Below are positions 37,695-63,466 of a stretch of DNA of 64,000 bases, piece by piece. How positions within the stretch are numbered: the first letter of the stretch is position 1; the number at the start of each line of letters is the position of its first letter. This DNA comes from an archaeon (GTDB lineage Archaea > Iainarchaeota > Iainarchaeia > Iainarchaeales > 1-14-0-10-31-34). The notes beneath the pieces were generated by a model. It made no database searches and was not told the DNA's origin. It was given only the letters and a program-made list of their open reading frames with translations. The stretch is from NCBI GenBank assembly GCA_043819075.1, contig JBDRFE010000002.1, positions 114 through 64,113 on the forward strand, given 5' to 3'. The position numbers and the translations under genes were made by a program.

Positions 37695-37815
37695 TTAGCC
37701 GCTTCAGTGCGGCTGTAACTGTGCACGGCGTTCGCTTCACTCAGCCGAGTGTGCTTCGCTTTCGCGGTTTCGCCCGCGAGCCCCGAAAAATGTCAAGCCA
37801 TTGCTTTGCAACGGC
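37695..37815 (+). repeat. GC-rich hairpin-dense repeat element (copy 1), between the two tRNA-Lys genes
   Basis: agccgcTTCAGTgcggct, cgcggTTTCGCccgcg and aagccattgcTTTgcaacggctt hairpins. Shares gtgcttcgcttt..cgcggtttcgcccgcgag and cactcagccgag segments with the element at 59160-59455. Confidence 0.6.
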
Positions 37816-39048: not shown

Positions 39049-39087
39049 CTTTAAAACATTTCCATAGCCTATTTGATAAATGGTTCT

Positions 39088-39205
39088 GGGGTCGTAGCTC
39101 AGCCTGATATTGTAGAGGAATAATCTTTTTATTGGCTCACAGTAGGCTTTGGAGAGCACACGGCTGAAGACCGTGGTGTCGCGGGTCCAAATCCCGCCGA
39201 CCCCA
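39088..39205 (+). tRNA. tRNA-Phe (GAA) with a roughly 44-nt non-canonical intron in the D-loop
   Basis: GGGGTCG TA GCTC AGCCTG[atattgtagaggaataatctttttattggctcacagtaggcttt]GGA GAGC A CACGG CTGAAGA CCGTG GTGTC GCGGG TCCAAAT CCCGC CGACCCC A. The spliced D-arm GCTCAGCCTGGGAGAGC is the canonical tRNA-Phe sequence. Confidence 0.7.
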
Positions 39206-39209
39206 TTTT

Positions 39210-49292: not shown

Positions 49293-50036
49293 TCAGCTTT
49301 CATCGTAGGCTTCTTCTATTCCGTGGATTTTGATTCCGTCTTTTGTTATTGTTAATGGATGCAAATCTTCTGAATGTTTTGTTGAACGCATTTTCCTTAT
49401 ATGCACTGTCCTGTTTGTTCCGCCGCCGCCTATTCCAGAGTAATGCAGTACTATTACTCCGTCAACAACGTATTCTTCTACTTCGTATCTGCCGAATTTT
49501 GCTGTCCCTTCCTGTATTTCAGAGGTCATGATTGATGTAACGCCTATTCTCATCAGCATATAGCTTAATTTGAGTATTGCTTTTCTTGTCTCGTTTTCGT
49601 TGTCAAAATTGAATCCTAATGCAGGAATTGAGTCAATTACAACTCTTTTTGCGCCGATTCTTTTTGTTACTCTCATTATTTCAAGCAATAGTTTATCCAA
49701 GTCAAATCCTGTCATTGGCAGAGAAAATTCTTCTTCTGATGGCATTCCAATTCTTGCAACGCTTCCGTCTATTATGCTTAACAGTTTTTTTTCCTCTAAT
49801 TTTCTTAAATCCCAGCCAAATCTTGTAACATCTTCTCTTATTAGTTCAGGTCTTTCATCTAAAGTAACATAAATTCCTGGCTCATTGTATTTTACTGCCC
49901 CGTTGTAAATGTATTGCATTGAAAAAATTGTTTTTCCTGTTCCGCATGCACCTGAAACCAGCACAGCCCTTTTTTCCGGAAAGCCTCCTTCAAGCAGTTC
50001 ATCTAATCCAGTTATTCCTGTTTTAACTCTTTTCAT
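49293..50036 (-). CDS. KaiC/RadA-like RecA-superfamily ATPase
   Basis: GITGLDELLEGGFPEKRAVLVSGACGTGKT Walker A in a KaiC-domain context. 247 aa. Confidence 0.8.
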   Translation of the reverse strand: MKRVKTGITGLDELLEGGFPEKRAVLVSGACGTGKTIFSMQYIYNGAVKYNEPGIYVTLDERPELIREDVTRFGWDLRKLEEKKLLSIIDGSVARIGMPSEEEFSLPMTGFDLDKLLLEIMRVTKRIGAKRVVIDSIPALGFNFDNENETRKAILKLSYMLMRIGVTSIMTSEIQEGTAKFGRYEVEEYVVDGVIVLHYSGIGGGGTNRTVHIRKMRSTKHSEDLHPLTITKDGIKIHGIEEAYDES

Positions 50037-50106: not shown

Positions 50107-51927
50107 TTAAACCCTGCTTACCTCTTTCACTCCGTCAATTCCCTTTATTTTTTCAATTATTTTTGTTATTGTTTCAGGTTTTTTTGCCTGTAGCGTGAAC
50201 TTGCATGAAATATTTTTGTTTTCAACTTTTGCTTCAGTTGAAACAGCTTTTGCTTTCATTGAAGCTATTGCATCAAGTATGTCAGTCAAAAGATTTATTT
50301 TTTCTATTGCCTCAATTTTTATTTCAGTGCTCGTCTCCGTTTTCCCGACCATTCCCCAGTTCAAAGGGATTATTTTTTTCTTGTTTTCCCTTAATAAATT
50401 AGGGCAGGTTTCTCTGTGGACAATCAGCTTTCTTTTGGTTGTTTTTATTGCAAAAATTTTGTCCCCTGAAATCGGGCTGCAGCATTTTGCAATCTTTATT
50501 GAGTCAATTATTTTTTTTCCTGTTTTTTCAGGGATTTTTTTTGTTTTTGTCACCTCTATTTTAAGGAAATTCATTATTCTTGCTTTCGCTTTCTGGCTTT
50601 TCACTATTGACAGCCATTGTTTTTTTGGAAACTGTTTTTTTGAGGTGATTATTTCAACTAAGTCCCCGTTTTCAAGCTTGTGGTCAAGCTTTACCAGCTT
50701 GCCGTTGACTTTTGCTTTTTCGCAGCTGTTGCCAAGGCTTGAATGGATTGCATAGGCAAAATCCAATGGAGTTGAATTCAACGGAAGCTCTATTATTTTG
50801 TCTTTTGGCGTTAGAGTGAAAATTTTTTTTTCTTCAAAGCTTAAGTTAAATGTTTCAAACATTTTTTCTTTTTTGTTTTTTCTCTGCCATTCAATCAGTT
50901 CTCTTGCCCATGTAAGCTTTCCGTCAAACTCCTTGTCTTTTTTCAGCTCCTTGTATGCCCAGTGAGCAGGCATTCCTTCTTCTGCTTCAATATGCATTTG
51001 CATTGTCCTTATTTGTGCTTCAAATACTTTTCCGTCAGCTGTTTTAAGGTCTGTGTGAATTGACCTGTAATTATTTTTTTTTGGGCTTGCAATGTAGTCG
51101 TCAAACGACCCAAGCAATGGCTCGTGCATTGAATGAATAAAGCCAAGTATCAGGTAGCATTCTTTTATTGTGTTGCAGATTATCCTTACTGCTGTAAGGT
51201 CACGCAGGTCTTTTAGCCTGCATTTTTTTTTCTTCATTTTTTTGTATATTCCGTAAAAGTTTTTTGTCCTGCCGATTATGTTTGCGTTAATTCCCTCTTT
51301 TTTCAGTTTTTTCCTTATTTCTTCAACTATTTTTTTTAGTTCTGAATCCCTTTCTTTCCTGGTTTTTTTCATTGCATTTTTTATGGCATTGTATGCTTTT
51401 GGCTCTATTATTCTGAATGAAAGATCTTCAAGCTCCCAGTTTATTTCTTCTAATCCGAGTTTTTGGCTTATCGGGCAATAGACTTCCATAACATTTTTTG
51501 CGAGCTCTTCATTGCTTTTCGTGTTCCTGAGTTCAGCCAGTTTGGCTGAAAGAATTATTATTATTGTTCTGATGTCTTTTGTTGTTGCAAGAATTATTTT
51601 GCTTAATGTTTCTGGGCTGAAATTCTTGTTCTGGGATTCAATTTTTTTTATTTTCCTTGTTTCCATCACAAGCTTTTGTGCATCTTCATTTAGCTCTTTC
51701 AGTATTTCTTCTTCTTTTAATCCGGTTTCCCAAAGCAGTGCAGCCGAAATTGTGTTTTCTTTTAATCCAAGAGAAACAAGAGTGAATGCGGTGTTAAGCG
51801 CGTTTGAAAGCTGTTTTCCTTCAAGGTGGTTTTTTGCGAGTTCTGTGGCTTTTTTTATTGTCAGCAAATCAGTGTCTTTTTTCAAGGATTTAAACAAGTC
51901 ATTTGCTGAAACATTTTTGTATTTCAT
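50107..51927 (-). CDS. RelA/SpoT-homologue (long RSH) (p)ppGpp synthetase with degenerate or truncated HD domain, TGS and ACT domains
   Basis: Synthetase motifs GRTKNFYGIYKKM, DLTAVRIIC, DYIASPKKNNYRSIHT, EAQIRTMQMH, AEEGMPAHWAYKE. TGS-like PLDFAYAIHSSLGNSCEKAKVNGKLV...NGDLVEIITS. C-terminal ACT-like fold. The N-terminal 150 aa lack the HD dyad. Confidence 0.8.
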   Translation of the reverse strand: MKYKNVSANDLFKSLKKDTDLLTIKKATELAKNHLEGKQLSNALNTAFTLVSLGLKENTISAALLWETGLKEEEILKELNEDAQKLVMETRKIKKIESQNKNFSPETLSKIILATTKDIRTIIIILSAKLAELRNTKSNEELAKNVMEVYCPISQKLGLEEINWELEDLSFRIIEPKAYNAIKNAMKKTRKERDSELKKIVEEIRKKLKKEGINANIIGRTKNFYGIYKKMKKKKCRLKDLRDLTAVRIICNTIKECYLILGFIHSMHEPLLGSFDDYIASPKKNNYRSIHTDLKTADGKVFEAQIRTMQMHIEAEEGMPAHWAYKELKKDKEFDGKLTWARELIEWQRKNKKEKMFETFNLSFEEKKIFTLTPKDKIIELPLNSTPLDFAYAIHSSLGNSCEKAKVNGKLVKLDHKLENGDLVEIITSKKQFPKKQWLSIVKSQKAKARIMNFLKIEVTKTKKIPEKTGKKIIDSIKIAKCCSPISGDKIFAIKTTKRKLIVHRETCPNLLRENKKKIIPLNWGMVGKTETSTEIKIEAIEKINLLTDILDAIASMKAKAVSTEAKVENKNISCKFTLQAKKPETITKIIEKIKGIDGVKEVSRV

Positions 51928-52818: not shown

Positions 52819-53271
52819 TTAACTGCATTTTCCAATTAATCCTTTGTCGCCTATCTGGACCAAGCCTGTAACATTTTTTGAATTGTATGTGAACATCACG
52901 TTTTTGTCAAAGCCTGCCCCAAGGTTTCCGCATGCGTTTAACGCTGTTAACTGAACAAGTTTTCTTTCTCCTGCGTTAAATGAAACGCTTGCAGCCAGAG
53001 TGCCTACTCCGTCAAACTTTACTTCAGTTAAAGTCAGCTTGTTTGCTGAAACATTTTGCACTTCCAAGTCAGCTGTTGTTCCACTGAACTTGTATTCAAG
53101 CATTGTGAAAGGCGAAGTGCTCTGCCAGTAAGCTTTTGACTGCTGTTCTGTTATGCCTCCGCTTAATCCAGGAACCCAGCCCATTACCCCGACAACAACT
53201 AATGCAATTACAATTATTACCGCAAGAATAATCAAGTATTCGGTTGTTCCCTGTGCTTTTCTTCCGAACAT
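52819..53271 (-). CDS. type IV pilin-like protein with class III (prepilin) signal peptide
   Basis: MFGRKAQGTTEYLIILAVIIVIALVVV has a short basic leader, a G/A cleavage context, E at +5 and a hydrophobic helix. Confidence 0.65.
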   Translation of the reverse strand: MFGRKAQGTTEYLIILAVIIVIALVVVGVMGWVPGLSGGITEQQSKAYWQSTSPFTMLEYKFSGTTADLEVQNVSANKLTLTEVKFDGVGTLAASVSFNAGERKLVQLTALNACGNLGAGFDKNVMFTYNSKNVTGLVQIGDKGLIGKCS

Positions 53272-53348
53272 TTTTTCCCTCCTTTTTTTTGCAAAATAAA
53301 ACAATTATGCTATCTATTTAGTCGGTTTTCATTTATATTCTTTTCTCA

Positions 53349-54356
53349 TTATAAAACCGAAATAAACCCTGAAACCAGTGTTTTGAACCCAAAAAACAAT
53401 ATCACTGATGCAATGAATATTACTGGAAAATATTTTATTCCAAGCTGGGGTTTTCTTTCAGTTAATACTCCAATGAACAGGCTTGAAAGAATTGCATTTC
53501 CGAAAAACAGCACTAAAGCCATTTTCTGCATGAAATCTGGCGTGATGAGCAGTTCAGAGCTTAGGAAGCCAACATTAATTGTTCCTGTTGTTGTTTGTTG
53601 TGCCTGAATTGAAGAAATCATTTCAAGGAATTGCACTGAAATTGACATTAAAAGCGGGGTGGCAACAATTATTACAAACAACACAAACATTACATACATT
53701 TTTGTCCCTGAAATCATTTCTTTTTTCAGTTCATCTGTTTTTGAAATATCTTCTGCACTGGCTTCAAGAATGTTTGCAAGCTTTCCCCCTGACTTCAGGC
53801 TTTCAGAGAAAAATGAAACGCTTTCGCTTAAAATCCTTGAATCAATTTTTTTTGCCAGTTCTTTCAGTGAGCCGCTGAATGATTCAATGCCAAGGCTTTT
53901 GGCTGTAACTGTTTTTATTTCTTCTGCTAAAGGGCCGAATTCTTCTCTTGAACTGCTTTTGAATGCATAAAATGGTGTCATTCCTGACCTGAGGTTTGAT
54001 GCAACTAACAGCAGGAAATCAGGCAGAACGCTTTCAACTCTTTTTCTCCTGTCATCAATCTGGTATTCTAAATGCAGGTAATAAAGGAATAAAGTTGTTG
54101 CAAAAAAAATTATGCCAAAAATTATTCCTGCAAGAAACTGCAATCCAATTTCAGTGAATTCAATGAATCTTCCAAGGCTTAAAGGCATCAAAAAACCAAT
54201 CAAAAAAAATAATACTGCAAGCATTAATCTTTTTCCAAGCCAGGTATCTGTGTCCTGGCTTATTCCTGCAAAATCTAATCTGGCTGAAACAAGTTTTCTT
54301 TTTTTTTCAGGCACCAGCTCTGAAAGCCTTTTCTGGATTAATTCAAGTTGTTTCAC
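53349..54356 (-). CDS. type II secretion system F-domain membrane protein (FlaJ/TadC-like)
   Basis: Polytopic, with a T2SSF-like cytoplasmic domain. Adjacent to the FlaI/TadA-like ATPase. Confidence 0.6.
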   Translation of the reverse strand: MKQLELIQKRLSELVPEKKRKLVSARLDFAGISQDTDTWLGKRLMLAVLFFLIGFLMPLSLGRFIEFTEIGLQFLAGIIFGIIFFATTLFLYYLHLEYQIDDRRKRVESVLPDFLLLVASNLRSGMTPFYAFKSSSREEFGPLAEEIKTVTAKSLGIESFSGSLKELAKKIDSRILSESVSFFSESLKSGGKLANILEASAEDISKTDELKKEMISGTKMYVMFVLFVIIVATPLLMSISVQFLEMISSIQAQQTTTGTINVGFLSSELLITPDFMQKMALVLFFGNAILSSLFIGVLTERKPQLGIKYFPVIFIASVILFFGFKTLVSGFISVL

Positions 54357-55237
54357 ATTATCACCTTTGGCTTCCTGTTTTTTACAAAACCAATCAATAT
54401 AACCTGAACTGCAAAGGCAAAAAAAATTGTTGCCATTACATGAATTTCACTTATGTCAGAGCCGCCCATTGAAGAAAGGATTATAAGAAAAGTTATTCCT
54501 AAAGTCGGAATTGCTGCAGCCAAAAGCAAATACATTAAAATCCATAAATTGAGTTCAGCTGAATAATTTTTTATTCCCCTTAACTGGTTTGATGTAAGAG
54601 TGTTAATTGTTGTTTCTAATGCACCTGTAATGCTTGCCCCGCTTTTAATTGAAGTTACAATCTGCCAGCAGGCTTTTTTTAAGTACTCTGATTTGGTGCG
54701 CAAAGCCATTTTTTCCAGTGCTTTTGCTTCTGGTGTTCCTGCAACAATTTCTTTTACAACTAACCGAAATTCTTTTGATACAACGCCATAATCTGCTTTT
54801 GCAGTGTTTTCAATTGCATTAAATAGCGGAACACCTGATTTTGTCTGCAAAAGCATTCCCTTTAATGCAAAAACAAGGTCCTGGTCTATTCCCAAGGCAA
54901 TGTTTTTTGAAATTATTCCAGGGTAAATTATGTGCAGGAAAAAAAATAATACAAAAAAAGCAAACCCGATTAATAAATTCACGGGAAAAACTGTTTCTAA
55001 ACTAAAATCCCTTAAAAAAATAAGCATTGTTCCAAGCAAAAAAAATACTGTTCCATAAACCAGGGCTGAAATAATTGATGCAGTAAGGTATTCTTCTGCT
55101 GAAAGAGGTATTTCTGCTTTCTTTAAATCATATTTTGTTCCTACAAAAATTTTCTGCAGGAAGTTTCCAACAAACAAAATCCTTTTATTGAATTTTTTTG
55201 CCTGTTCTGTTGAAAAAACAAGGAATTTTACTCTCAT
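54353..55237 (-). CDS. type II secretion system F-domain membrane protein (FlaJ/TadB-like)
   Basis: T2SSF domain (LKGMLLQTKSGVPLFNAIENTAKADYGVVSKEFRLVVKEIVAGTPEAKALEKMA). A 4-bp overlap with the downstream paralogue. Confidence 0.6.
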   Translation of the reverse strand: MRVKFLVFSTEQAKKFNKRILFVGNFLQKIFVGTKYDLKKAEIPLSAEEYLTASIISALVYGTVFFLLGTMLIFLRDFSLETVFPVNLLIGFAFFVLFFFLHIIYPGIISKNIALGIDQDLVFALKGMLLQTKSGVPLFNAIENTAKADYGVVSKEFRLVVKEIVAGTPEAKALEKMALRTKSEYLKKACWQIVTSIKSGASITGALETTINTLTSNQLRGIKNYSAELNLWILMYLLLAAAIPTLGITFLIILSSMGGSDISEIHVMATIFFAFAVQVILIGFVKNRKPKVIM

Positions 55238-55247
55238 TTATTTCACT

Positions 55248-56981
55248 TCAGATTTTATCCAGATTAATTTTTTTTTCTGATGCATTAATTATTGTTTCAG
55301 GGTTGCTGTAATATAATTCCATTACTTTTCCCACTTCGTTAACTGAATTAATTTTTTTTTCAGCCATCCATTCAAGGATTTTTTTTCTTTGCTGTAAATC
55401 CTTGTTTATTTCCTGTTCTGTCAGCCCTGTATGAATGTTTAATTCCCCGTAAAATTTTACCGGCTCTTCTGTTTTGTCCCATGAATCAGTTCTAGGAGAC
55501 CAGCGGTAAATTGTGTTGATTGAAACGCTTCCTTCATGAGAGCCGGTTTCAATTTCACTTATTTCTAATGTCCTTCTCTTGTTTGTTTTTCTGTCCCTGT
55601 ACTGAACTAAAACCAAATGCAGTGCTTCTATTTCTAATGCAGGAATTTCAATCGGCGGCTCTGTCAGCCTTCTAATCAATTGATAACCTGAATCAGCGTG
55701 CATTGTGGAATAAACTGAATGCCCTGTATGCATTGCTTCAAACAATACTTCTGCTTCTTTTCTTTTCCTCATTTCGCCTAAAATTATTCTGTCAGGCCTC
55801 ATTCTAAGAGAGGACATCATTAAGTCAAACATGCTTATTTCTCCAAGGCCTTCTGGGTTAGGGTTTCTTGTTGTTAACGGAATCCAGTTCCATTTAAGGT
55901 AATCAGGCAGAGTTAATTCTCTTACGTCTTCTATTGTTATTATTCTATGATAGCTTGGAATCATTGCACATAAAGTGTTTAATGCAGAAGTCTTTCCTGA
56001 AGCAGTTGAGCCTGCGACCATTAAATTCATTTCATAGTGTATTGCCATCCACAAAAAAGCCGCCATCTCTGAATTCATTGTATGCTTTTCCTGAATAAAA
56101 TCTGTTATTGTCCAGGGTTTTCTTGCAAACTTTCTTATTGTAATAGTGTTTCCTAAAGAAGAAACAGGGAATAAAGTGGAATTAACTCTGTCTCCGGTTC
56201 CTAAATGAGCATCTAGAATAGGATTTAATGTTGTTATTTCTCTTCCGACTTTTCTTGCAATCTGTGCCGCATAATTTTTTATTAATTCCTCTGATTCAAG
56301 CATTATGTTTGTTTTCAGCCAGCCGAATTCTCTGTGATAAACTGCAATAGGCGTTATAGAAGAATTTATTGCAATTTCTTCAAGCAAATCGTCTTTCATC
56401 AGCAATTCAAGTTTTCCCATTCCATACATTTCATGCAATAAGATTCCTGCAAGCTTTTCAGTTATTTTTTCCTGGTTTTCTGGCAGGTATTTCAGCAGGG
56501 TTTTGTTCACTGTTTGAATGAATTTTTTCTTTAATTTCTCGTTTTTTTCGTCTTCATCCCCTGGTTCAATTTCAATGTTTTTTGCGATTTCTTCTTTTAA
56601 TTCGTCAATGAATTTTTGTGTTGCGGAATCAATTTCATCGAATTCAACATTGTATTGGTGTGTCCTGCTTCCTTTTTCTTCTGTAATCCTTGTTTTTGCT
56701 TTGGTGTTGTCTGCATTCAATTCATATTCTAATAAAATTTTTTGCGCTTTAACAGGTATTTCAGGCCCTAATTTTATTTCTTTTTCAATTTTTATGAAAG
56801 GCTTTGACAAAACGTTTGCAGGGTAAATTACGTTCAATAACCCTGTTTTTTCCATTATTTTTGCAGTTAATTCAAGTTTTTCTTTTTCCCATCCCAGTTC
56901 AGCTGAAATTTCTTCAATTGAAAGCTTTTTTTCCCTGTTAAGGAGTTCAGCTAATTCAAGGATTTTTGTTTTTATTATCAT
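55248..56981 (-). CDS. type IV pilus/archaellum assembly ATPase (FlaI/TadA/VirB11 family)
   Basis: Walker A LMVAGSTASGKTSALNTL. Asp-box and His-box region (RIITIEDVRELTL...PDRIILGEMRKRKEA). Confidence 0.85.
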   Translation of the reverse strand: MIIKTKILELAELLNREKKLSIEEISAELGWEKEKLELTAKIMEKTGLLNVIYPANVLSKPFIKIEKEIKLGPEIPVKAQKILLEYELNADNTKAKTRITEEKGSRTHQYNVEFDEIDSATQKFIDELKEEIAKNIEIEPGDEDEKNEKLKKKFIQTVNKTLLKYLPENQEKITEKLAGILLHEMYGMGKLELLMKDDLLEEIAINSSITPIAVYHREFGWLKTNIMLESEELIKNYAAQIARKVGREITTLNPILDAHLGTGDRVNSTLFPVSSLGNTITIRKFARKPWTITDFIQEKHTMNSEMAAFLWMAIHYEMNLMVAGSTASGKTSALNTLCAMIPSYHRIITIEDVRELTLPDYLKWNWIPLTTRNPNPEGLGEISMFDLMMSSLRMRPDRIILGEMRKRKEAEVLFEAMHTGHSVYSTMHADSGYQLIRRLTEPPIEIPALEIEALHLVLVQYRDRKTNKRRTLEISEIETGSHEGSVSINTIYRWSPRTDSWDKTEEPVKFYGELNIHTGLTEQEINKDLQQRKKILEWMAEKKINSVNEVGKVMELYYSNPETIINASEKKINLDKI

Positions 56982-57023
56982 TTTTCTGCCTTCACCAATA
57001 ATACTGTTTTTTTATTAATAAAC

Positions 57024-57890
57024 CTAACTAAACTTCTTTAATTCAATTAAAGAACTTGAATTAAGATCCTGCTGAAAATAATTCAAATCAATGTCAGCAA
57101 AAACTTTTAATCCAGAATTCAGGTCAAGCTGGGGCATTACAGCCTTTAATGCAAGCAATGTTTTTTTCTGGCCAAAAGTTTTATTCCACACTCTTACAGC
57201 ATTAATTTTTCCTTCAAAACTTCCAAAATGAATTTCTATTACGTCTTCTGCACTGCCTGAAAACCTTATTACAATAACATTATCTGAAAGCGAATTAACC
57301 TGAAGGATTTCATGTTTTTCGTTAAGTGAATTCAGGTCAGAATAATTAAAGTTAACAGTTAAATCCGGGCTTGAAGTGAAAAGTGTTTCATTCACTTGAA
57401 TTGAACTCGCATTTACATTAAGGTTCAAGTCAATTGAAACTGCATTGGTGTTCCTGTTTTCAGCAAAAAATTCCGCTGAACTCCCTGCACCAAAACCATA
57501 TTCATATACTAATCCGTTGCTGAACTTAACTGGAACAGAACTGCTTATTCTTTCAGAGCCGATTTTTATTTTCGTGTTGTTTACCGCAGAATAGCTGGTT
57601 TCAGCGAATTCCTTGAATTTGTTTATTCCTGCAATTTTGCTGTATTCTGCGGGAAGGGTTTCAATGAAAGTTATTTCAAGGTTTGGTTCAATTTGAATGC
57701 TTATTTGTGTTCCCAGAATTTCGCTTAAATCAAACCCCAAATCATCTTTCACAAATTCTGCCTTAGAATACTTTTTTATGTCATTAAAAGAATAATTCCT
57801 GTCCTGTGCATTTTGCGAGTAAAACACTGAAAACAACATCATTGAAGAAAGCAGGATTATTGCGCTAAAGCTTATTATGTATCCTTTCAT
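57024..57890 (-). CDS. pilin-like/secreted hypothetical protein with N-terminal hydrophobic anchor
   Basis: MKGYIISFSAIILLSSMMLF N-terminus. S/N-rich body. Confidence 0.4.
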   Translation of the reverse strand: MKGYIISFSAIILLSSMMLFSVFYSQNAQDRNYSFNDIKKYSKAEFVKDDLGFDLSEILGTQISIQIEPNLEITFIETLPAEYSKIAGINKFKEFAETSYSAVNNTKIKIGSERISSSVPVKFSNGLVYEYGFGAGSSAEFFAENRNTNAVSIDLNLNVNASSIQVNETLFTSSPDLTVNFNYSDLNSLNEKHEILQVNSLSDNVIVIRFSGSAEDVIEIHFGSFEGKINAVRVWNKTFGQKKTLLALKAVMPQLDLNSGLKVFADIDLNYFQQDLNSSSLIELKKFS

Positions 57891-58306
57891 GCATTCACCT
57901 TATGCCATGCCTTTATTTCAGCCCAATAAAATTTTTCCTGTTCTATTACAAAAAAACTTCTTTTCACTGAAATAACTGAAATCCCTTTTTCACAGCCTTT
58001 TTTTGTTGCAGTGCTTAATGCGCTTGAATTATTGTCAAAATCAATTAAATTGATTTCAAAGCATAAATTTTGTGAAGTCTTATTTAAGTACTTCGCTATT
58101 TCATTGTTTTTTCCCTGCAGTACAGCCTGCTGGAGTTTGCTGTTTTTTTCAAGCACTGTTAAAACGTCTTCTGAAACCAGTGCAAGCTTTGCTTCGTTTA
58201 ATGAATTCAGCCTGCTTTCATTGAAATGCACTGCAATGGAAAAAAGCATTGCAAAAGCAATAACCAATGCAATTACTGCATCAACTGAAATAACAAACCC
58301 TTTCAC
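57887..58306 (-). CDS. pilin-like protein (class III signal peptide-like)
   Basis: MKGFVISVDAVIALVIAFAML. A 4-bp overlap with the neighbour. Confidence 0.5.
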   Translation of the reverse strand: MKGFVISVDAVIALVIAFAMLFSIAVHFNESRLNSLNEAKLALVSEDVLTVLEKNSKLQQAVLQGKNNEIAKYLNKTSQNLCFEINLIDFDNNSSALSTATKKGCEKGISVISVKRSFFVIEQEKFYWAEIKAWHKVNA

Positions 58307-58809
58307 CCGAACACACCTAAAACAAGTTTTCTTTCAACACCGTTTAACAAAACAAATCTTTCAATTACAACTGCCTTGGTTTCGGGCCCGGGCATAACGC
58401 CAAAAAACTTGATTTCACTTGCTGAATTCATTTCTGTTACCTTAAAATAAAAATCGTATTTCCCTAACCCAAGAATTTCTTTTATTTCACTGTAACTGCT
58501 TTGGTTTAAGTCAATAAGCTTGTCTATTTTTTTTTCATCCAAAACATTTCTTTCTTTTGCAATGCCAATTGAATTAACATTCAGGTCATTCATTAACTCC
58601 CATGAATCCGGGTCGCCTGGAGTTGAAACCAACGCCTGAGAAGCATTCAGGGTTTTTTCCTGCATCTCTGAATAAAATTCTTCTTCGTTAAGTGAATTCT
58701 GTATTAAGCCAAAAGAGCTAACTGAAATAACCAGAATAAACAATAATGCAGTTAATGCAACAATTAAGTCTGTTGTAAAAATCTGGCCTTTAGAGTTCTT
58801 CAACTTCAA
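58303..58809 (-). CDS. pilin-like protein (class III signal peptide)
   Basis: MKLKNSKGQIFTTDLIVALTALLFILVISV has a KG-Q cleavage context. Confidence 0.55.
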   Translation of the reverse strand: MKLKNSKGQIFTTDLIVALTALLFILVISVSSFGLIQNSLNEEEFYSEMQEKTLNASQALVSTPGDPDSWELMNDLNVNSIGIAKERNVLDEKKIDKLIDLNQSSYSEIKEILGLGKYDFYFKVTEMNSASEIKFFGVMPGPETKAVVIERFVLLNGVERKLVLGVFG

Positions 58810-59449
58810 TCACTCCGTTCAGGTTTTTAACTGAAATTTCTGTTGCATTTTCTTTGCTTATGAAAACTATTTTTTTTGCTATCAGTGAAGCTGAAACAAA
58901 CTGCCCTTGCCTGAAAAAAACTTTAACTGAGTTTTCCTCAAACCCTAATTCAAAATCAAATTGTTTTTCAATTACTGTCGTACTTCCGTTTCCGCTCAAA
59001 TAAATTCCGTTGACTGCTCTTGTAGTTTTTTCCAAAAGGGTTTTTGCCTTTATTTTTTCTGAATTAAAATCAGTGAGTTCTTTTTGCTGGAATGAAACAA
59101 AAACAACCAAAGAAAATAATGAAAAAAGAATAACAAGCGTTATAACGAATTCAGCTGAAATCTGCCCTCTCGCGGTTTCGCCCGCGAGTGACGAAATACG
59201 GCATAAAGCCGTATGTGCTTCGCTTTTCGCTCGCGAGTGACGAAGCACAACCTGCGGTTGAGCGTGCTTCGCTTTCCCGCTTCCGTGCGGGAGTAACGGA
59301 GCACTATCTTCGCTTGCGCTCGATAGAGCCAGCACAGCTTTACGCTGTGCCTCGCTACAACCAGCCAAAACTGGTTCACGGCATTCACTTCGTTCAGCCG
59401 AGCTGGCACACCTTTGGCGTGCCTCGCTGTTTTTTGTTTTTTTTTTCAT
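58790..59449 (-). CDS. pilin-like protein whose 5' end is occupied by a GC-rich repeat insertion (N-terminal about 90 codons of the ORF are repeat-derived; native start apparently lost)
   Basis: The mature-pilin-like segment ARGQISAEFVITLVILFSLFSLVVFV begins exactly at the repeat boundary (about 59177). No ATG/GTG/TTG lies in frame between it and the repeat-encoded MKKKTKNSEARQRCASSAERSE... Confidence 0.45.
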   Translation of the reverse strand: MKKKTKNSEARQRCASSAERSECREPVLAGCSEAQRKAVLALSSASEDSAPLLPHGSGKAKHAQPQVVLRHSRAKSEAHTALCRISSLAGETARGQISAEFVITLVILFSLFSLVVFVSFQQKELTDFNSEKIKAKTLLEKTTRAVNGIYLSGNGSTTVIEKQFDFELGFEENSVKVFFRQGQFVSASLIAKKIVFISKENATEISVKNLNGVIEVEEL

Positions 59450-59455
59450 TTAATC
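59160..59455 (+). repeat. GC-rich hairpin-dense repeat element (copy 2, about 295 bp) inserted in the pilus locus
   Basis: Hairpins ctcgcggTTTCGCCcgcgag, atacggcATAAAgccgtat, gtgcttcg...cgaagcac, cccgcTTCCGTGcggg, gcacagcTTTACgctgtgc, ggcacACCTTTGGCgtgcc. The GTGCTTCGCTTT unit occurs three times. Shares about 50 nt with 37695-37815. Confidence 0.6.
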
Positions 59456-61265
59456 ACGGAGTCCTCTGAATAATGCTAATGTCATCAACATAAAAATAAT
59501 CTCCTGTGCTGTTCATCCATGAATCAAATCCAATCCAGAATTCGCTTGAAAGAGTGTAAGCATTCAAGTCAAAAGCATAAAAATGATAAACATTATCTGA
59601 ATCAGCTGAAGTAAAAGTTTTTATTACACTCCAGGTTATCCCGTCAGATGAAACAAGGACATTCTGGTAATCGCTTCCTTCAAATGAATTTACTTTAGCC
59701 CAGAATTCAAGCCTTGGCTTTGAATAAGAACTTAAGTCAACTGCTCTTGTAGCATAGCCTGTTGCCAGCCTAAGCCTCAAATGTCTTGGAGGAGTGTATG
59801 TTCCTCCTGAAGTTACAAGAGATGAATCGCCTGAATGAATCCAGCCTGCAGTCCACCCTGTTCCTGAATTCCAGCTTGTGTCCGGAAAGTTATCAAATGC
59901 AATTACAACAGGATATTGGATTACATTTATTTGTATAACCCTGTTTTCATTGCTGCTTCCTTCATTAGAGTTAGCTGAATCATCAACACAATTGATACCC
60001 CAAAAATAATTTCCATTAACCGAAAAAGTTTTTGTAAAACTCTGTGTTATTCCTTCGCTTACTGAATTGTCTGTCTGGTCAACTGCTCCGTTAATTATTA
60101 GTTCACAGAAAGCAATTCCAGAGTCAATGTCATTAACAGAATAATCAAACTGCACTGAAAAGTTTCCTGAAACAAATCCGTTTGAAGGCGACACCAAGCT
60201 TATTGTTGGTGCAAGAGTATCATTAAACGGAACACTGACTGTAACTGAAACATAATCTGAATTAATTCCATCTGAAGCAGTTATTGTTCCTGCACTGCTT
60301 CCTGCCCCGATTGGCACATCAATTATTGCAGTGAATTCATTGCAGGTATTTCCTGTAAGCAAACCGACTGAAGGAATTGGCTGAATCCATAAAGCAATGG
60401 TTCCGGAAAAAATAAAATCAATTCCTGTTATTGTTGAATCAGTTGTATTGCATAACTGGAAACTCGTTGAATCAGAGTTTCCTTCAATTATTGTTGTATT
60501 CCAGTAATTTGGGAAAACCCTTAAAGGCTTTTCAGCTGAACCAGTTATTACTTCAAGTGTTACCGGAACAACAATTCTTTTTGCACCATCAGTTGTTGCT
60601 GCATCAAAAATTATTTCCCCTGAATAATTGCCTGCTGCTGTCTGGCTTGAAGAAAAATTAATGTCAATTGAATAGCTTGAACCAGATGCTACAACAAAAA
60701 AATTGCTGCTTAAATTCATTGAAACCTCAACTGAATTCCAGTTAAAGCTTACTGTTACATTTGCATCAGCTGAAGTGCTGTTTATTATTGAAATGCTTTC
60801 AGTTGAATTTGAATCCTGTGCTATTGCAGAGTAAATGCTTCCCTTGTTTGACTCAATTTTAATGTCACCTATTACAACATATCCTTCAAATGCTGTAATC
60901 CAAACCCAGTGGCCTCCTGGTTCTGTGGGAATGCTTCCGCTTAACTCTGTTTTTGATTCAGCTATTAAGTCTGTTCCGTTTACATTAATTCTTACAGTCT
61001 TGTCTGAAACACTTGTTTTTGTTTCATCAACTCCTGATGGAATTACCACAAAAATCTGTTTTGTTGTGCCAGGCCCTGAAACAAAAACTTCTTCTGCTGT
61101 CCTTGCAATTTTGTTTACAGTGTTTTGTGCATCAGAATTAGCTTTAGCTGAATTAATTCCTGTTATTTCATTGTTTGATGTAACAAGGATTAATCCTATT
61201 GCAACCATTGAAACAGCAAGAATAACTAATAATTCCACTGAAGCCTGGGCTTTTCCGCAAACCAT
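59454..61265 (-). CDS. large pilin-like / adhesin-like protein with class III signal peptide
   Basis: MVCGKAQASVELLVILAVSMVAIGLILV (E at +5). 603 aa. S/T/N-rich with repeated beta-rich segments. Confidence 0.55.
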   Translation of the reverse strand: MVCGKAQASVELLVILAVSMVAIGLILVTSNNEITGINSAKANSDAQNTVNKIARTAEEVFVSGPGTTKQIFVVIPSGVDETKTSVSDKTVRINVNGTDLIAESKTELSGSIPTEPGGHWVWITAFEGYVVIGDIKIESNKGSIYSAIAQDSNSTESISIINSTSADANVTVSFNWNSVEVSMNLSSNFFVVASGSSYSIDINFSSSQTAAGNYSGEIIFDAATTDGAKRIVVPVTLEVITGSAEKPLRVFPNYWNTTIIEGNSDSTSFQLCNTTDSTITGIDFIFSGTIALWIQPIPSVGLLTGNTCNEFTAIIDVPIGAGSSAGTITASDGINSDYVSVTVSVPFNDTLAPTISLVSPSNGFVSGNFSVQFDYSVNDIDSGIAFCELIINGAVDQTDNSVSEGITQSFTKTFSVNGNYFWGINCVDDSANSNEGSSNENRVIQINVIQYPVVIAFDNFPDTSWNSGTGWTAGWIHSGDSSLVTSGGTYTPPRHLRLRLATGYATRAVDLSSYSKPRLEFWAKVNSFEGSDYQNVLVSSDGITWSVIKTFTSADSDNVYHFYAFDLNAYTLSSEFWIGFDSWMNSTGDYFYVDDISIIQRTP

Positions 61266-61331
61266 ACAAAACCATAATTATAACAGAAAACCATTTATTA
61301 TACTTTTTGAGTTTAAAGGAAAAAATTTGAA

Positions 61332-61556
61332 TCAGTATAATGTTCCAAGAACCTGTTTTCCTTTTAAGTAAATCCAGATTGTTGCGCCAAGAGACAGCAT
61401 TGAAACAAAATAGAATGTTGTTGCAACAAGGCTGTAACCGCTGGTTTGTGCGAGAATTCCTTCAACAAAAGTTGCAATAGAAAAAGTAACTAAAATTATT
61501 CCGCTTAAAAGAAAGAAAACAATTTTCATTTCCTGTTGTCTTGTCTCGTTTTTCAT
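61332..61556 (-). CDS. small membrane protein (hypothetical)
   Basis: 74 aa, two TM helices. Confidence 0.3.
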   Translation of the reverse strand: MKNETRQQEMKIVFFLLSGIILVTFSIATFVEGILAQTSGYSLVATTFYFVSMLSLGATIWIYLKGKQVLGTLY

Positions 61557-61566
61557 TTAATTCAGC

Positions 61567-62436
61567 TCAAAATATTTCTATATCCGCATATATTTTTATG
61601 CCTTCCTTTTCAAAATTCAGGGCGCAAATTTTGTTGGTGTGTTTTGTTCCCCTCATTTTAAGGATTTCAAGCGAATGCACTCTTACATCTTTTTCTTCTT
61701 TTTTTTCGTAATACAATGAAATCAGCGAGTCAACCAAAAACCCTACAGAGCCTTTAGCTGTTTCAGCTTCTTTTGGGCCCATTTCGCTTAATATCATTGA
61801 AGTGCAGTCCCATTTTTTCAGCAACTCAAAAAACCTTAAAGTGTTTTCTCTTTGCTGGTATTCGTCTTTAAACAATAAACTGTAAGAAGTAATTGAATCA
61901 ACAACTAATCTTTTTGCTTTCATTTCCTGTATTGCATCTTTTATCGGTCCCCCGCCCTGCTCTAATAATCTTCCAACCTGATGCGGCTTGTATTCTAACA
62001 CACGAAACAGGTTTTTTTCCTCTAATTCCTTGAAATCCCAGCCGTATTCAGCGCTGTGCCTGTAATATGATTCCCTGCTTTCTTCAAAACTGATTAGTAT
62101 TCCAGGGTCATTATAAATTTTTGCCCCGTTATAAAGGAACTGTAACCCAAAAGTTGTTTTTCCTGTTCCGGCACTGCCTGTTACAAGAATAGTGGAATTT
62201 TTTTCAAACCCGCCTTCAATTAATTCGTCAAAACCAAAAATTCCTGATGGAATTCTTTTAAGTTCACCGAGTTTTGGCTTGTTTTCAGGAACCTTGTTTT
62301 TTTCTTCAGGTTTTTTTATTACAGGCTTTTCTTTTTGAGCTGAATTTTCGGGTGTCTTTTTTTTTGTTTCAGGCAATTCTTTTTTTATCCCTAAATCGCT
62401 TTCAATTACTAGTTTTTTTTCTTCCATTGCATTCAC
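61567..62436 (-). CDS. KaiC-like RecA-superfamily ATPase with K/E-rich N-terminal extension (FlaH-like candidate)
   Basis: GIFGFDELIEGGFEKNSTILVTGSAGTGKTTFGLQFLYNGA Walker A in a KaiC domain. It lies at the edge of the pilus/archaellum-like locus. Confidence 0.75.
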   Translation of the reverse strand: MNAMEEKKLVIESDLGIKKELPETKKKTPENSAQKEKPVIKKPEEKNKVPENKPKLGELKRIPSGIFGFDELIEGGFEKNSTILVTGSAGTGKTTFGLQFLYNGAKIYNDPGILISFEESRESYYRHSAEYGWDFKELEEKNLFRVLEYKPHQVGRLLEQGGGPIKDAIQEMKAKRLVVDSITSYSLLFKDEYQQRENTLRFFELLKKWDCTSMILSEMGPKEAETAKGSVGFLVDSLISLYYEKKEEKDVRVHSLEILKMRGTKHTNKICALNFEKEGIKIYADIEIF

Positions 62437-63079: not shown

Positions 63080-63378
63080 TTGCGGTTTTCAGGCAGTTTA
63101 AGCATTGGGCACGCCCTGAAGTCGAATCAATTCAAGAAATTGGATTAGCCCTTAATTGTTCTTCCCTCCGCTGCTCCCAAAAGCATTAAGCAGTAAAATT
63201 TCCGTTGCTCCCTTCCAGGCCTGGCGGGTTGACTTTAAAGCCCAATCTCAGGGGACAGAGGTTCATTGAAACAGTCAAGGATCCTTTTCCCTGGATTAAA
63301 TCCTTCTCCAAAGCTTCGGCTCCTGCTAAAGCAGATTTCAGGTAACAAGGAACTGCTGACTCCCCGGCCTAGCCCAAA
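63080..63378 (-). ncRNA. signal recognition particle RNA (7S/SRP RNA); ends approximate
   Basis: The minus strand contains CCGCCAGGCCUGGAAGGGAGCAACGG, matching the universally conserved SRP RNA domain IV (helix 8) AGGUCCGGAAGG(A/G)AGCA(G/A)C with GGAA tetraloop. It is GC-rich relative to its surroundings. A TTTTTAAA box lies about 24 nt upstream of the GGGCUAGG 5' end. Confidence 0.55.
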
Positions 63379-63466
63379 AAATTGTGTTAAAAAAGGTTTA
63401 AAAACTTTAAAAAAACAGGAAAAAGGTTATTAAGTGGTTTTTTCATTAATTTATTAGTGAGTTAAA

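Follow-up and report, generated by a model that had tools for sequence, protein, structure and literature searches.

The 64,000-nucleotide stretch of DNA analyzed here (the window) carries at positions 52819–62436 a complete, conserved operon that very probably encodes a non-motile, adhesive archaeal type IV pilus of the "two platform genes" design, corresponding to the Epd-like System 1 or to the DPANN form of subsystem 4A. The window has a GC content of about 35% and is archaeal, since it encodes an archaeal signal recognition particle RNA (63103–63379). The operon comprises 11 genes, all on the minus strand, with spacings of −20 to +66 nt, and its gene order is kept in four related contigs (L001–L004, labeled Micrarchaeota or Diapherotrites). 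An original prediction, made from the sequence alone, had proposed a type IV pilus-type locus with several pilins bearing class III signal peptides; the core machinery, the conserved N-termini and the conserved gene order all support this. The gene coordinates it gave are correct throughout, and every gene it named was found on the minus strand. In order of transcription, the operon encodes the following proteins (slashes mark putative signal-peptide cleavage sites):

61567–62436, minus strand: KaiC-like single-domain ATPase, first gene of the operon; PF06745, 6.6e-57; an ATG at 62427 gives 286 aa; same position in L001–L004.
61332–61556, minus strand: 74-aa protein with two hydrophobic, predicted transmembrane helices; next to the KaiC gene in L001–L004 (73–75 aa).
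59454–61265, minus strand: candidate modular pilin-adhesin, 603 aa; MVCGKA/QASVELLVILAV; predicted pilin helix, pilin head, three immunoglobulin (Ig)-like domains and C-terminal jelly roll resembling a carbohydrate-binding module (CBM).
58790–59449, minus strand: putative minor pilin; open reading frame (ORF) of 219 aa with a 95-aa leader and a mature part of ~124 aa starting QISAEFVITLVILF (mature coding region ~58790–59164).
58303–58809, minus strand: pilin-like protein, 168 aa; ..NSKG/QIFTTDLIVALTALLF (NSKG/QIFTTD), from a motif scan; kept in L001, L002 and L004.
57887–58306, minus strand: pilin-like protein, 139 aa; MKG/FVISVDAVIALVIAF (MKG/FVISVD), from a motif scan; kept in all four relatives.
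57024–57890, minus strand: pilin-like or accessory protein, 288 aa; MKG/YIISFSAIILLSS (MKG/YIISFS), from a motif scan; 286–297 aa in relatives.
55248–56981, minus strand: pilus assembly ATPase (T2SSE) of the archaeal FlaI/GspE2 type, 577 aa; PF00437, 1.4e-31; N-terminal extension of ~180 aa.
54353–55237, minus strand: platform protein, N-half equivalent (TadB-like), 294 aa; one T2SSF domain, PF00482, 2.4e-12.
53349–54356, minus strand: platform protein, C-half equivalent (TadC-like), 335 aa; one T2SSF domain, PF00482, 6.5e-14.
52819–53271, minus strand: candidate major pilin, 150 aa from an ATG at 53271 (161 aa from a TTG at 53304); MFGRKA/QGTTEYLIILAVIIVIALVVVGVMG (QGTTEYLIILAVIIVIALVVVG), putative site MFGRKA/QGTTEY.

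The ATPases of the four related contigs are 78–100% identical to that of the window. In L002–L004 the order runs from KaiC and the 74-aa protein through a large variable protein (493–835 aa) and four small proteins to the ATPase, two T2SSF proteins and a pilin of ~150 aa; beyond the pilin lie TIM (on the opposite strand), RelA/SpoT, a second KaiC-like gene and LysRS. L001 (GCA_043824355.1, contig JBDRTA010000015.1) encodes an identical ATPase; over 18 kb it shares 99.2% identity with the window, while being a distinct sequence. The neighbors of the locus are housekeeping genes (TIM, LysRS, GMP synthase), and it does not lie in a genomic island.

The assembly ATPase displays a Walker A motif (GSTASGKT), an Asp box, a Walker B motif and a His box. 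Its closest relatives in the Protein Data Bank (PDB) are the archaeal afGspE (2OAP; 6.7e-75, 256 bits) and FlaI (4II7; 2.1e-60, 208 bits), in line with the FlaI/TadA-like ATPase of the original prediction; matches to CpaF (2.1e-38, 135 bits) and VirB11 (~3e-18, 67–69 bits) are weaker. Homologs number in the thousands, the closest (78–80% identical) coming from contigs labeled Micrarchaeota or Diapherotrites. The NCBIfam FlaI equivalog model NF058587 scores 297 bits (2.2e-88) against a cut-off of 550, and the VirB11 model 135 bits against a cut-off of 250. On these scores the protein groups with the archaeal pilus ATPases and is not an archaellum FlaI. A grouping with VirB11/conjugation clades, which had been named in advance as telling against a pilus, is not what is seen (256 bits for afGspE, 69 bits for VirB11). 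Residues 1–180 have no Pfam match; in one homolog (P0033) this region contains a MarR-type helix-turn-helix domain. Subsystem-specific N-terminal ATPase domains are a theme of a 2026 preprint on type IV filament (TFF) machineries.

The two T2SSF proteins are, by their alignments, the two halves of a FlaJ-type platform in a TadB/TadC arrangement: they cover positions 5–249 and 261–545, respectively, of the 555-position FlaJ model. The split FlaJ/TadBC platform proposed earlier is thus borne out.

Six proteins of the operon have a short basic leader ending in Lys or Arg followed by Gly or Ala, then Gln, Phe or Tyr and approximately 20 hydrophobic residues, and these motifs are conserved in L001–L004. 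In addition to the sites listed above, putative cleavage sites are MVCGKA/QASVEL in the 603-aa protein and ..ARG/QISAEF in the 219-aa ORF. Of the 285 window reading frames that reach 60 aa, 9 match a permissive class-III-like pattern, five of them inside the 9.6-kb locus, a clustering that, on this motif count, is more than chance. The ORF at 58790–59449 is missed by the pattern for no other reason than its 95-aa leader. The genes for the small pilin-like proteins are tightly packed: the start of the 168-aa gene overlaps the upstream gene by 20 nt, and the 139-aa gene has 4-nt overlaps with both neighbors. The 139-aa protein has weak matches to DUF7288 (0.009) and DUF7262 (0.047), both below cut-off, and no Pfam or NCBIfam match was found for the 288-aa protein.

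The 150-aa protein matches the Pfam family PF04021 (Class_IIIsignal) at 5.5e-4, below the cut-off, and is one of a large family, with 1069 cluster representatives at E≤1e-3 (HMMER) that are mostly ~150 aa long and align end to end. PF04021 is matched by 43 of 50 aligned family members, and also by three homologs of the 603-aa protein; class III filament subunits are therefore recognizable in the operon both from the motif in the six proteins and through these relatives. The family profile matches two pilins of solved structure, AapB (8Q30; 5.5e-07, helix and head) and the Pyrobaculum calidifontis pilus (8FK7; 3e-04). From its family membership and its position at the end of the operon, we infer that the 150-aa protein is the filament (shaft) subunit. 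It is not Epd-like, because its head domain matches that of AapB.

The AlphaFold model of the 603-aa protein (mean pLDDT 81.8) comprises a 57-residue N-terminal helix (residues 5–61), a small β head, three Ig-like sandwiches and a C-terminal jelly roll. Modeled alone, the C-terminal 158 residues reach a pLDDT of 90.3 and a pTM of 0.86. The best PDB matches of this domain in Foldseek are CBM16, CBM4, CBM22 and CBM61 (E down to 3.4e-07, TM 0.6–0.69); MAM domains, an ephrin-receptor ligand-binding domain and a gingipain adhesin domain are also matched. A fold search with the full-length model returned only generic Ig-array proteins (ciliary ASH-domain proteins, PrgB), so that a search by domain was needed. 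Homologs of the 603-aa protein (20 found) all belong to this lineage; they have N- and C-terminal parts in common, and their middle regions are swapped, carrying PKD, Big_7, Big_13, LamG or VWA domains. There are 12 N-glycosylation sequons in the 603-aa protein and seven in the 288-aa protein, and sequons are more frequent in the 603-, 288- and 139-aa proteins than in the cytoplasmic components. The predicted structure fits a modular pilin with a distal domain for a glycan-bearing surface. A tip adhesin had been proposed: the adhesin role is supported by the predicted helix, Ig-like and CBM-like folds, as is the expectation of adhesin or Ig-like folds itself, while placement at the tip, with the four small pilin-like proteins as a priming or tip complex, is suggested by analogy. 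Minor-pilin complexes are well established in bacteria and serve as the model for this idea.

The KaiC-like ATPase that heads the operon has KaiC_arch_3 as its best NCBIfam match (152 bits); its best matches are generic archaeal KaiC models, themselves below cut-off. Scores with the archaellum models FlaH (39 bits) and ArlH (24 bits) are far from the cut-offs of 194 and 215. No Pfam match was found for the adjacent 74-aa protein. A further gene of this family lies outside the operon:

49293–50036, minus strand: second KaiC-like ATPase, 247 aa; PF06745, 9.6e-78; syntenic in the relatives.

It is 33% identical to the operon protein and is separated from the operon by the convergent TIM gene and the RelA/SpoT gene. 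Both proteins are single-domain, unlike the double-domain clock KaiC. The original prediction placed a FlaH-like KaiC at each end of the region; both genes are present, but only the upstream one belongs to the operon, and for this operon protein the likeness to FlaH does not hold at the scores given above. KaiC-family ATPases are associated with archaeal type IV pilus loci, which have been catalogued by Makarova et al. 2016 (PMC4858521), and the operon KaiC-like protein is presumed to be a regulator.

Taken together, these components suggest how the pilus would be built. The six proteins would be made with class III signal peptides and inserted into the membrane with the short leader towards the cytoplasm, and a prepilin peptidase encoded elsewhere would cleave after the Gly or Ala at −1. 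A hexameric FlaI/GspE-type ATPase, docked on the two half-size TadB/TadC-like platform proteins, would then lift pilins from the membrane into the filament. The shaft would consist of the 150-aa Aap-like pilin, with the four small pilin-like proteins and the 603-aa pilin forming a priming or tip complex. This complex would display the three Ig-like spacers and the distal CBM-like domain to bind a glycan-bearing surface, plausibly that of a host cell. Regulation of assembly or expression probably falls to the KaiC-like ATPase and the 74-aa membrane protein.

Several observations weigh against an adhesive pilus of this kind. The window's own pilins fall below the PF04021 cut-off (20.2 versus 23.7 bits), and four of the six putative pilins have no family match at all. 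Positions +5/+6 of the 288-aa protein are not acidic, and it could be an accessory protein anchored in the membrane, not a pilin. The structural matches of the C-terminal adhesin domain are to a very common jelly-roll fold (TM 0.6–0.69, 9–19% identity), and because this fold is so common, sugar binding is only suggested. No prepilin peptidase gene was found in the 64-kb window by hydrophobicity and Pfam searches, nor within ±10 kb of the locus in L001–L004; the polytopic ORFs of the window are limited to a PIG-V-like transferase, TspO and a 164-aa membrane protein (sub-threshold Pfam matches) and the two T2SSF proteins. The missing linked peptidase does not refute a pilus, since the micrarchaeon Mia14 has two type IV pilus loci, a single unlinked FlaK-like peptidase and no archaellum (PMC5498576).

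Of the other functions that such machinery could serve, swimming is the least credible. Were this an archaellum operon, the KaiC-like protein would act as FlaH, and it is true that archaellum operons encode FlaH where this one encodes a KaiC/RecA-like ATPase, that FlaI is the best NCBIfam match of the assembly ATPase, and that many of its homologs are labeled "FlaI" by JGI. However, the FlaI, FlaH and ArlH scores all lie far below their cut-offs, the platform is split over two genes, unlike FlaJ, and the family of the shaft pilin best matches the adhesive pilin AapB. No locus protein matches archaellin, FlaF, FlaG, FlaC/D/E or FlaX-like families in Pfam and NCBIfam (archaellin, FlaF and FlaG scanned to E≤0.1), and archaella are generally absent from DPANN and Micrarchaeota genomes (PMC5498576). 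The archaellum that the original prediction had kept as an option is therefore largely refuted in favor of a pilus.

A DNA-exchange or cell-aggregation pilus, Ups-like or related to conjugation and moving DNA between symbiont and host, is also highly improbable. Exchange of DNA through type IV pili has been speculated for Micrarchaeota by Golyshina et al. (PMC5498576), and the ATPase has secondary NCBIfam matches to VirB11/TrbB/TadA "conjugal transfer" models (135–161 bits). Against this, the ATPase resembles the archaeal pilus ATPases far more than VirB11, the locus and its conserved flanks contain no DNA-processing, relaxase, VirB4/VirD4 or Ced-like genes, and the setting of the locus among housekeeping genes is not that of a genomic island. 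Somewhat less remote, though still unlikely, is a short pseudopilus or "bindosome"-like device for surface display and scavenging, in which the CBM-like protein would stay at the envelope and capture sugars or polymers there. The 603-aa protein does end in a CBM-like domain, the NCBIfam model of the bindosome ATPase BasE gives 161 bits, and a 2026 preprint proposes that many archaeal TFF machineries carry class-III-signal binding proteins for substrate scavenging. But the BasE score falls far short of that model's cut-off (1000) and of the FlaI score, the operon encodes a bona fide Aap-like shaft pilin of a large family, and the locus contains no ABC-transporter substrate-binding protein or transporter genes. 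The adhesive pilus remains the preferred reading of the locus.

The minor pilin gene holds a second feature of interest. The pilin of "about 130 aa" in the original prediction agrees with the mature part of this protein, but the ORF contains 92 extra codons, a GC-rich hairpin array that had been missed:

59162–59435, minus strand: array of ~47-nt two-hairpin units, in frame in the minor-pilin leader; GC-rich, with covariance-model matches.

The extra codons, between MKKKTKNS and ..ARG/QISAEF, form an island of ~290 nt with a GC content of 55–59%, compared with 35% for the genome, and the island folds far better than shuffled sequences (z = −6.8). Orthologs in L003 (MKKG/QISAEF) and L004 (MKG/QVTAEF) are 127 aa long and have normal leaders of 3–4 aa. 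Extended leaders are found in 13 of 15 minor-pilin homologs, in proteins of 146–188 aa, and across the homologs the expanded class III leaders measure 25–102 aa; the textbook range is 6–26 aa (PMC4471445). Arrays occupy the minor-pilin leaders at L001 7511–7820 and L002 7739–7828 and in L053–L059.

The reading frame is kept in all 14 distinct leader variants examined, and the leader is therefore evidently translated. The same 14 of 14 argue for read-through over an intron or translational bypass, for which there is no evidence. An internal start, with the island as a 5′ untranslated region, is not supported either, as there is no in-frame ATG, GTG or TTG near the Gly-Gln codons. One homolog, P0153 (109 aa), looked like a frameshifted copy but is simply another gene call: the underlying DNA carries the in-frame leader seen in P0149. 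Known RNAs do not account for the island: at 59146–59435 Rfam gives no match at gathering thresholds, with only chance matches to mir-2041, a snoRNA and CrcZ at E≤10, and ARAGORN finds no tRNA. At 59430–59449 the gene begins with an ATG followed by an A10 run (ATGAAAAAAAAAACAAAAAAC), a tract that could be prone to slippage; L001 and L002 share this run, and the insert-free L003 and L004 lack it.

At the DNA level the leaders are mosaics of ~47-nt units. Each unit comprises hairpin B, with a variable 7-bp stem and a TTTAT/TTTAC loop, a CATCG-type linker, and hairpin A (consensus CTCGCGG-GCGAAA-CCGCGAG). Of 10 expanded leaders examined, eight have a hairpin immediately adjoining the GGGCAG (Gly-Gln) codons, and in L053 and L056 this hairpin is weak or degenerate. 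In an alignment of 12 units, 85% of cells are paired, compared with 28–49% in slid controls, and 9 of 14 stem pairs change on both sides; none of 500 shuffles reaches the observed values. A covariance model built on the unit (R1) finds copies in the window leader at 59168–59214, 59218–59263 and 59273–59319 on the minus strand and at 59332–59378 on the plus strand. Between the window and L001, 74 of 151 differences fall within 59300–59450 (L001 7520–7680), the 5′ half of the array, where whole hairpins are replaced. This segment is a local hotspot of recombination or turnover. A further 11 differences form a smaller cluster within the adhesin gene (60600–60799).

Besides the leader, R1 finds only two units in the 64 kb, both in the 3′ flank of tRNA-Lys (37695–37802). 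Among other DPANN contigs, the unit directly adjoins tRNA-Pro and tRNA-Gly at their 3′ ends and is found on either side of tRNA-Glu; the sites are at tRNA ends, with one between converging genes (L024 1561–1607 and 1793–1839; L042 4691–4737; L045 239–281; L006 2–48). All four units downstream of a tRNA are oriented for UUCG-type loops in the tRNA trailer. On a 43% GC contig of Ca. Iainarchaeum UBA10036 (L010 3980–4163 / L048), a hairpin unit sits among irregularly spaced 12-mer GTTAGGCACTAC repeats. A 19-mer scan of genome contigs was largely uninformative, with about 35 of 40 matches arising by chance in GC-rich bacteria and the other five being DPANN loci. A viral origin was rejected, since the eight viral-contig matches are to hairpin A only, on contigs of 62–67% GC, and are attributable to chance. 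No transposase, whether RAYT or IS200-like, was seen with the units at the two loci in the window and the few sites in other DPANN contigs, and no published description of the hairpin unit was found.

Rickettsia palindromic elements (RPEs), repetitive extragenic palindromes (REPs) and bacterial interspersed mosaic elements (BIMEs) are short GC-rich palindromes that occur in several contexts, in both orientations and in mosaic arrays, and RPEs can lie in frame within protein-coding genes without destroying them. As these elements are generally understood, the array resembles them in that its units are short, GC-rich, palindromic, mosaic, in frame and present in both orientations. It differs in that the units are ~47-nt two-hairpin modules in a DPANN archaeon, seen only at tRNA flanks, one convergent intergenic site, one unclassified site on the 43% GC contig and one pilin leader family. 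The best reading is of a structured, possibly mobile hairpin repeat that has settled in the only permissive place of a gap-free operon, a class III leader that remains cytoplasmic and is cleaved away. Stem covariation between orthologous copies favors selection on structure over mere copying, and together with the conserved position it leaves room for a function, which may lie in RNA stability, attenuation or processing between the adhesin and the downstream genes. We tentatively propose, as a possibility that falls somewhat short of an even chance, that an undescribed two-hairpin family (B with a UUUAU loop, a CAUCG-type linker, A with a CGAA-type loop) has colonized the minor-pilin leader. 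It would do so either as a functional structure, acting between cistrons as an RNA-stability, attenuation or processing signal and so fixing how much adhesin is made relative to the downstream pilus gene products, or as a new archaeal REP-like mobile hairpin, with the cleaved leader exploited as the only permissive place.

Two features of the window lie outside the pilus operon and the array. The gene adjoining the operon in all four relatives (50107–51927, minus strand) encodes a full-length RelA/SpoT-type protein of 606 aa with HD_4, RelA_SpoT, TGS and ACT domains; long RelA/SpoT homologs are generally uncommon in archaea. A tRNA-Phe(GAA) gene at ~39087–39206 (plus strand) has a non-canonical intron of ~48 nt in the D-arm region. 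It is missed by ARAGORN and Rfam, and ARAGORN recognizes it only after removal of the insert in silico.

DPANN archaea rely on cell contact, and surface filaments are prime candidates for making it. The locus supplies a testable list of parts, namely an Aap-related shaft pilin, four minor pilins and a modular pilin-adhesin, whose distal CBM-like domain and swappable Ig, PKD and LamG modules could set host specificity. Such loci have been catalogued earlier (Makarova 2016; Golyshina 2017; Sivabalasarma and Albers 2026), which makes the present one useful and unsurprising. The hairpin-laden leader is the part most worth follow-up. If it reflects real biology, the array would be a rare case of structured repeats in frame inside an archaeal coding region, would indicate that class III leaders can exceed the textbook range fourfold, and would offer a handle on cistron-level expression tuning in gap-free archaeal operons.

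Set beside known systems, the locus shares with the archaellum the same superfamily of ATPase and platform, subunits with class III signals and a RecA/KaiC-like accessory ATPase, but on the FlaI, FlaJ and FlaH equivalog models it falls far short of each cut-off, and neither archaellins nor FlaF/G were found. In bacterial Tad/Flp systems, too, the platform is formed by two single-T2SSF-domain proteins beside the ATPase, and CpaF is a clear homolog (135 bits); Tad is thought to derive from archaeal Epd-like systems. Unlike Tad/Flp, the locus has an ATPase closer to archaeal afGspE and FlaI, pilins much larger than Flp, and no secretin, RcpB/C, TadZ or TadD/G components. The Aap pilus of Sulfolobus acidocaldarius (8Q30) resembles the system described here in the helix and head of AapB, matched by the 150-aa family profile (5.5e-07), in the presence of sequons and in its predicted adhesion role (PMC11178815). 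In contrast to the present locus, Aap, a crenarchaeal system, uses a single platform protein, AapF, with the accessory protein AapX, and has two pilins only (AapA/B) and no giant pilin-adhesin.

The closest parallels are with loci known from DPANN archaea, where pilus loci combining two platform genes with adhesins have been reported (bioRxiv 10.64898/2026.04.22.720090). The "System 1" of Sivabalasarma and Albers 2026 is Epd-like, with two platform genes, many pilins and adhesin-like class-III-signal proteins, and occurs in methanogens, Thermococcales and DPANN. In Mia14, LamG proteins are linked to pilus loci (PMC5498576; Golyshina 2017). As in System 1 (Epd-like, Methanococcus maripaludis) and the two-platform DPANN 4A loci, including MIA14_0170–0177 of Mia14, one ATPase gene is followed by two T2SSF platform genes, many pilin-like genes of varied size are gathered in one constitutive-looking operon, and an adhesin-like class-III-signal protein carries a galactose-binding/CBM-type domain. 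In Mia14 the peptidase is encoded elsewhere, as it would be here. The locus departs from System 1 in its shaft candidate, which has 150 aa and a globular Aap-like head, whereas the Epd pilin (arCOG06620) is short and headless and has a dedicated peptidase, EppA (arCOG02300). It departs from both System 1 and 4A in that the operon is headed by a KaiC-like ATPase and a 74-aa membrane protein. While the locus type is ordinary for DPANN archaea, the combination of an Aap-like shaft pilin, a split platform, a KaiC/74-aa head and a CBM-tipped pilin is noteworthy, if not categorically new.

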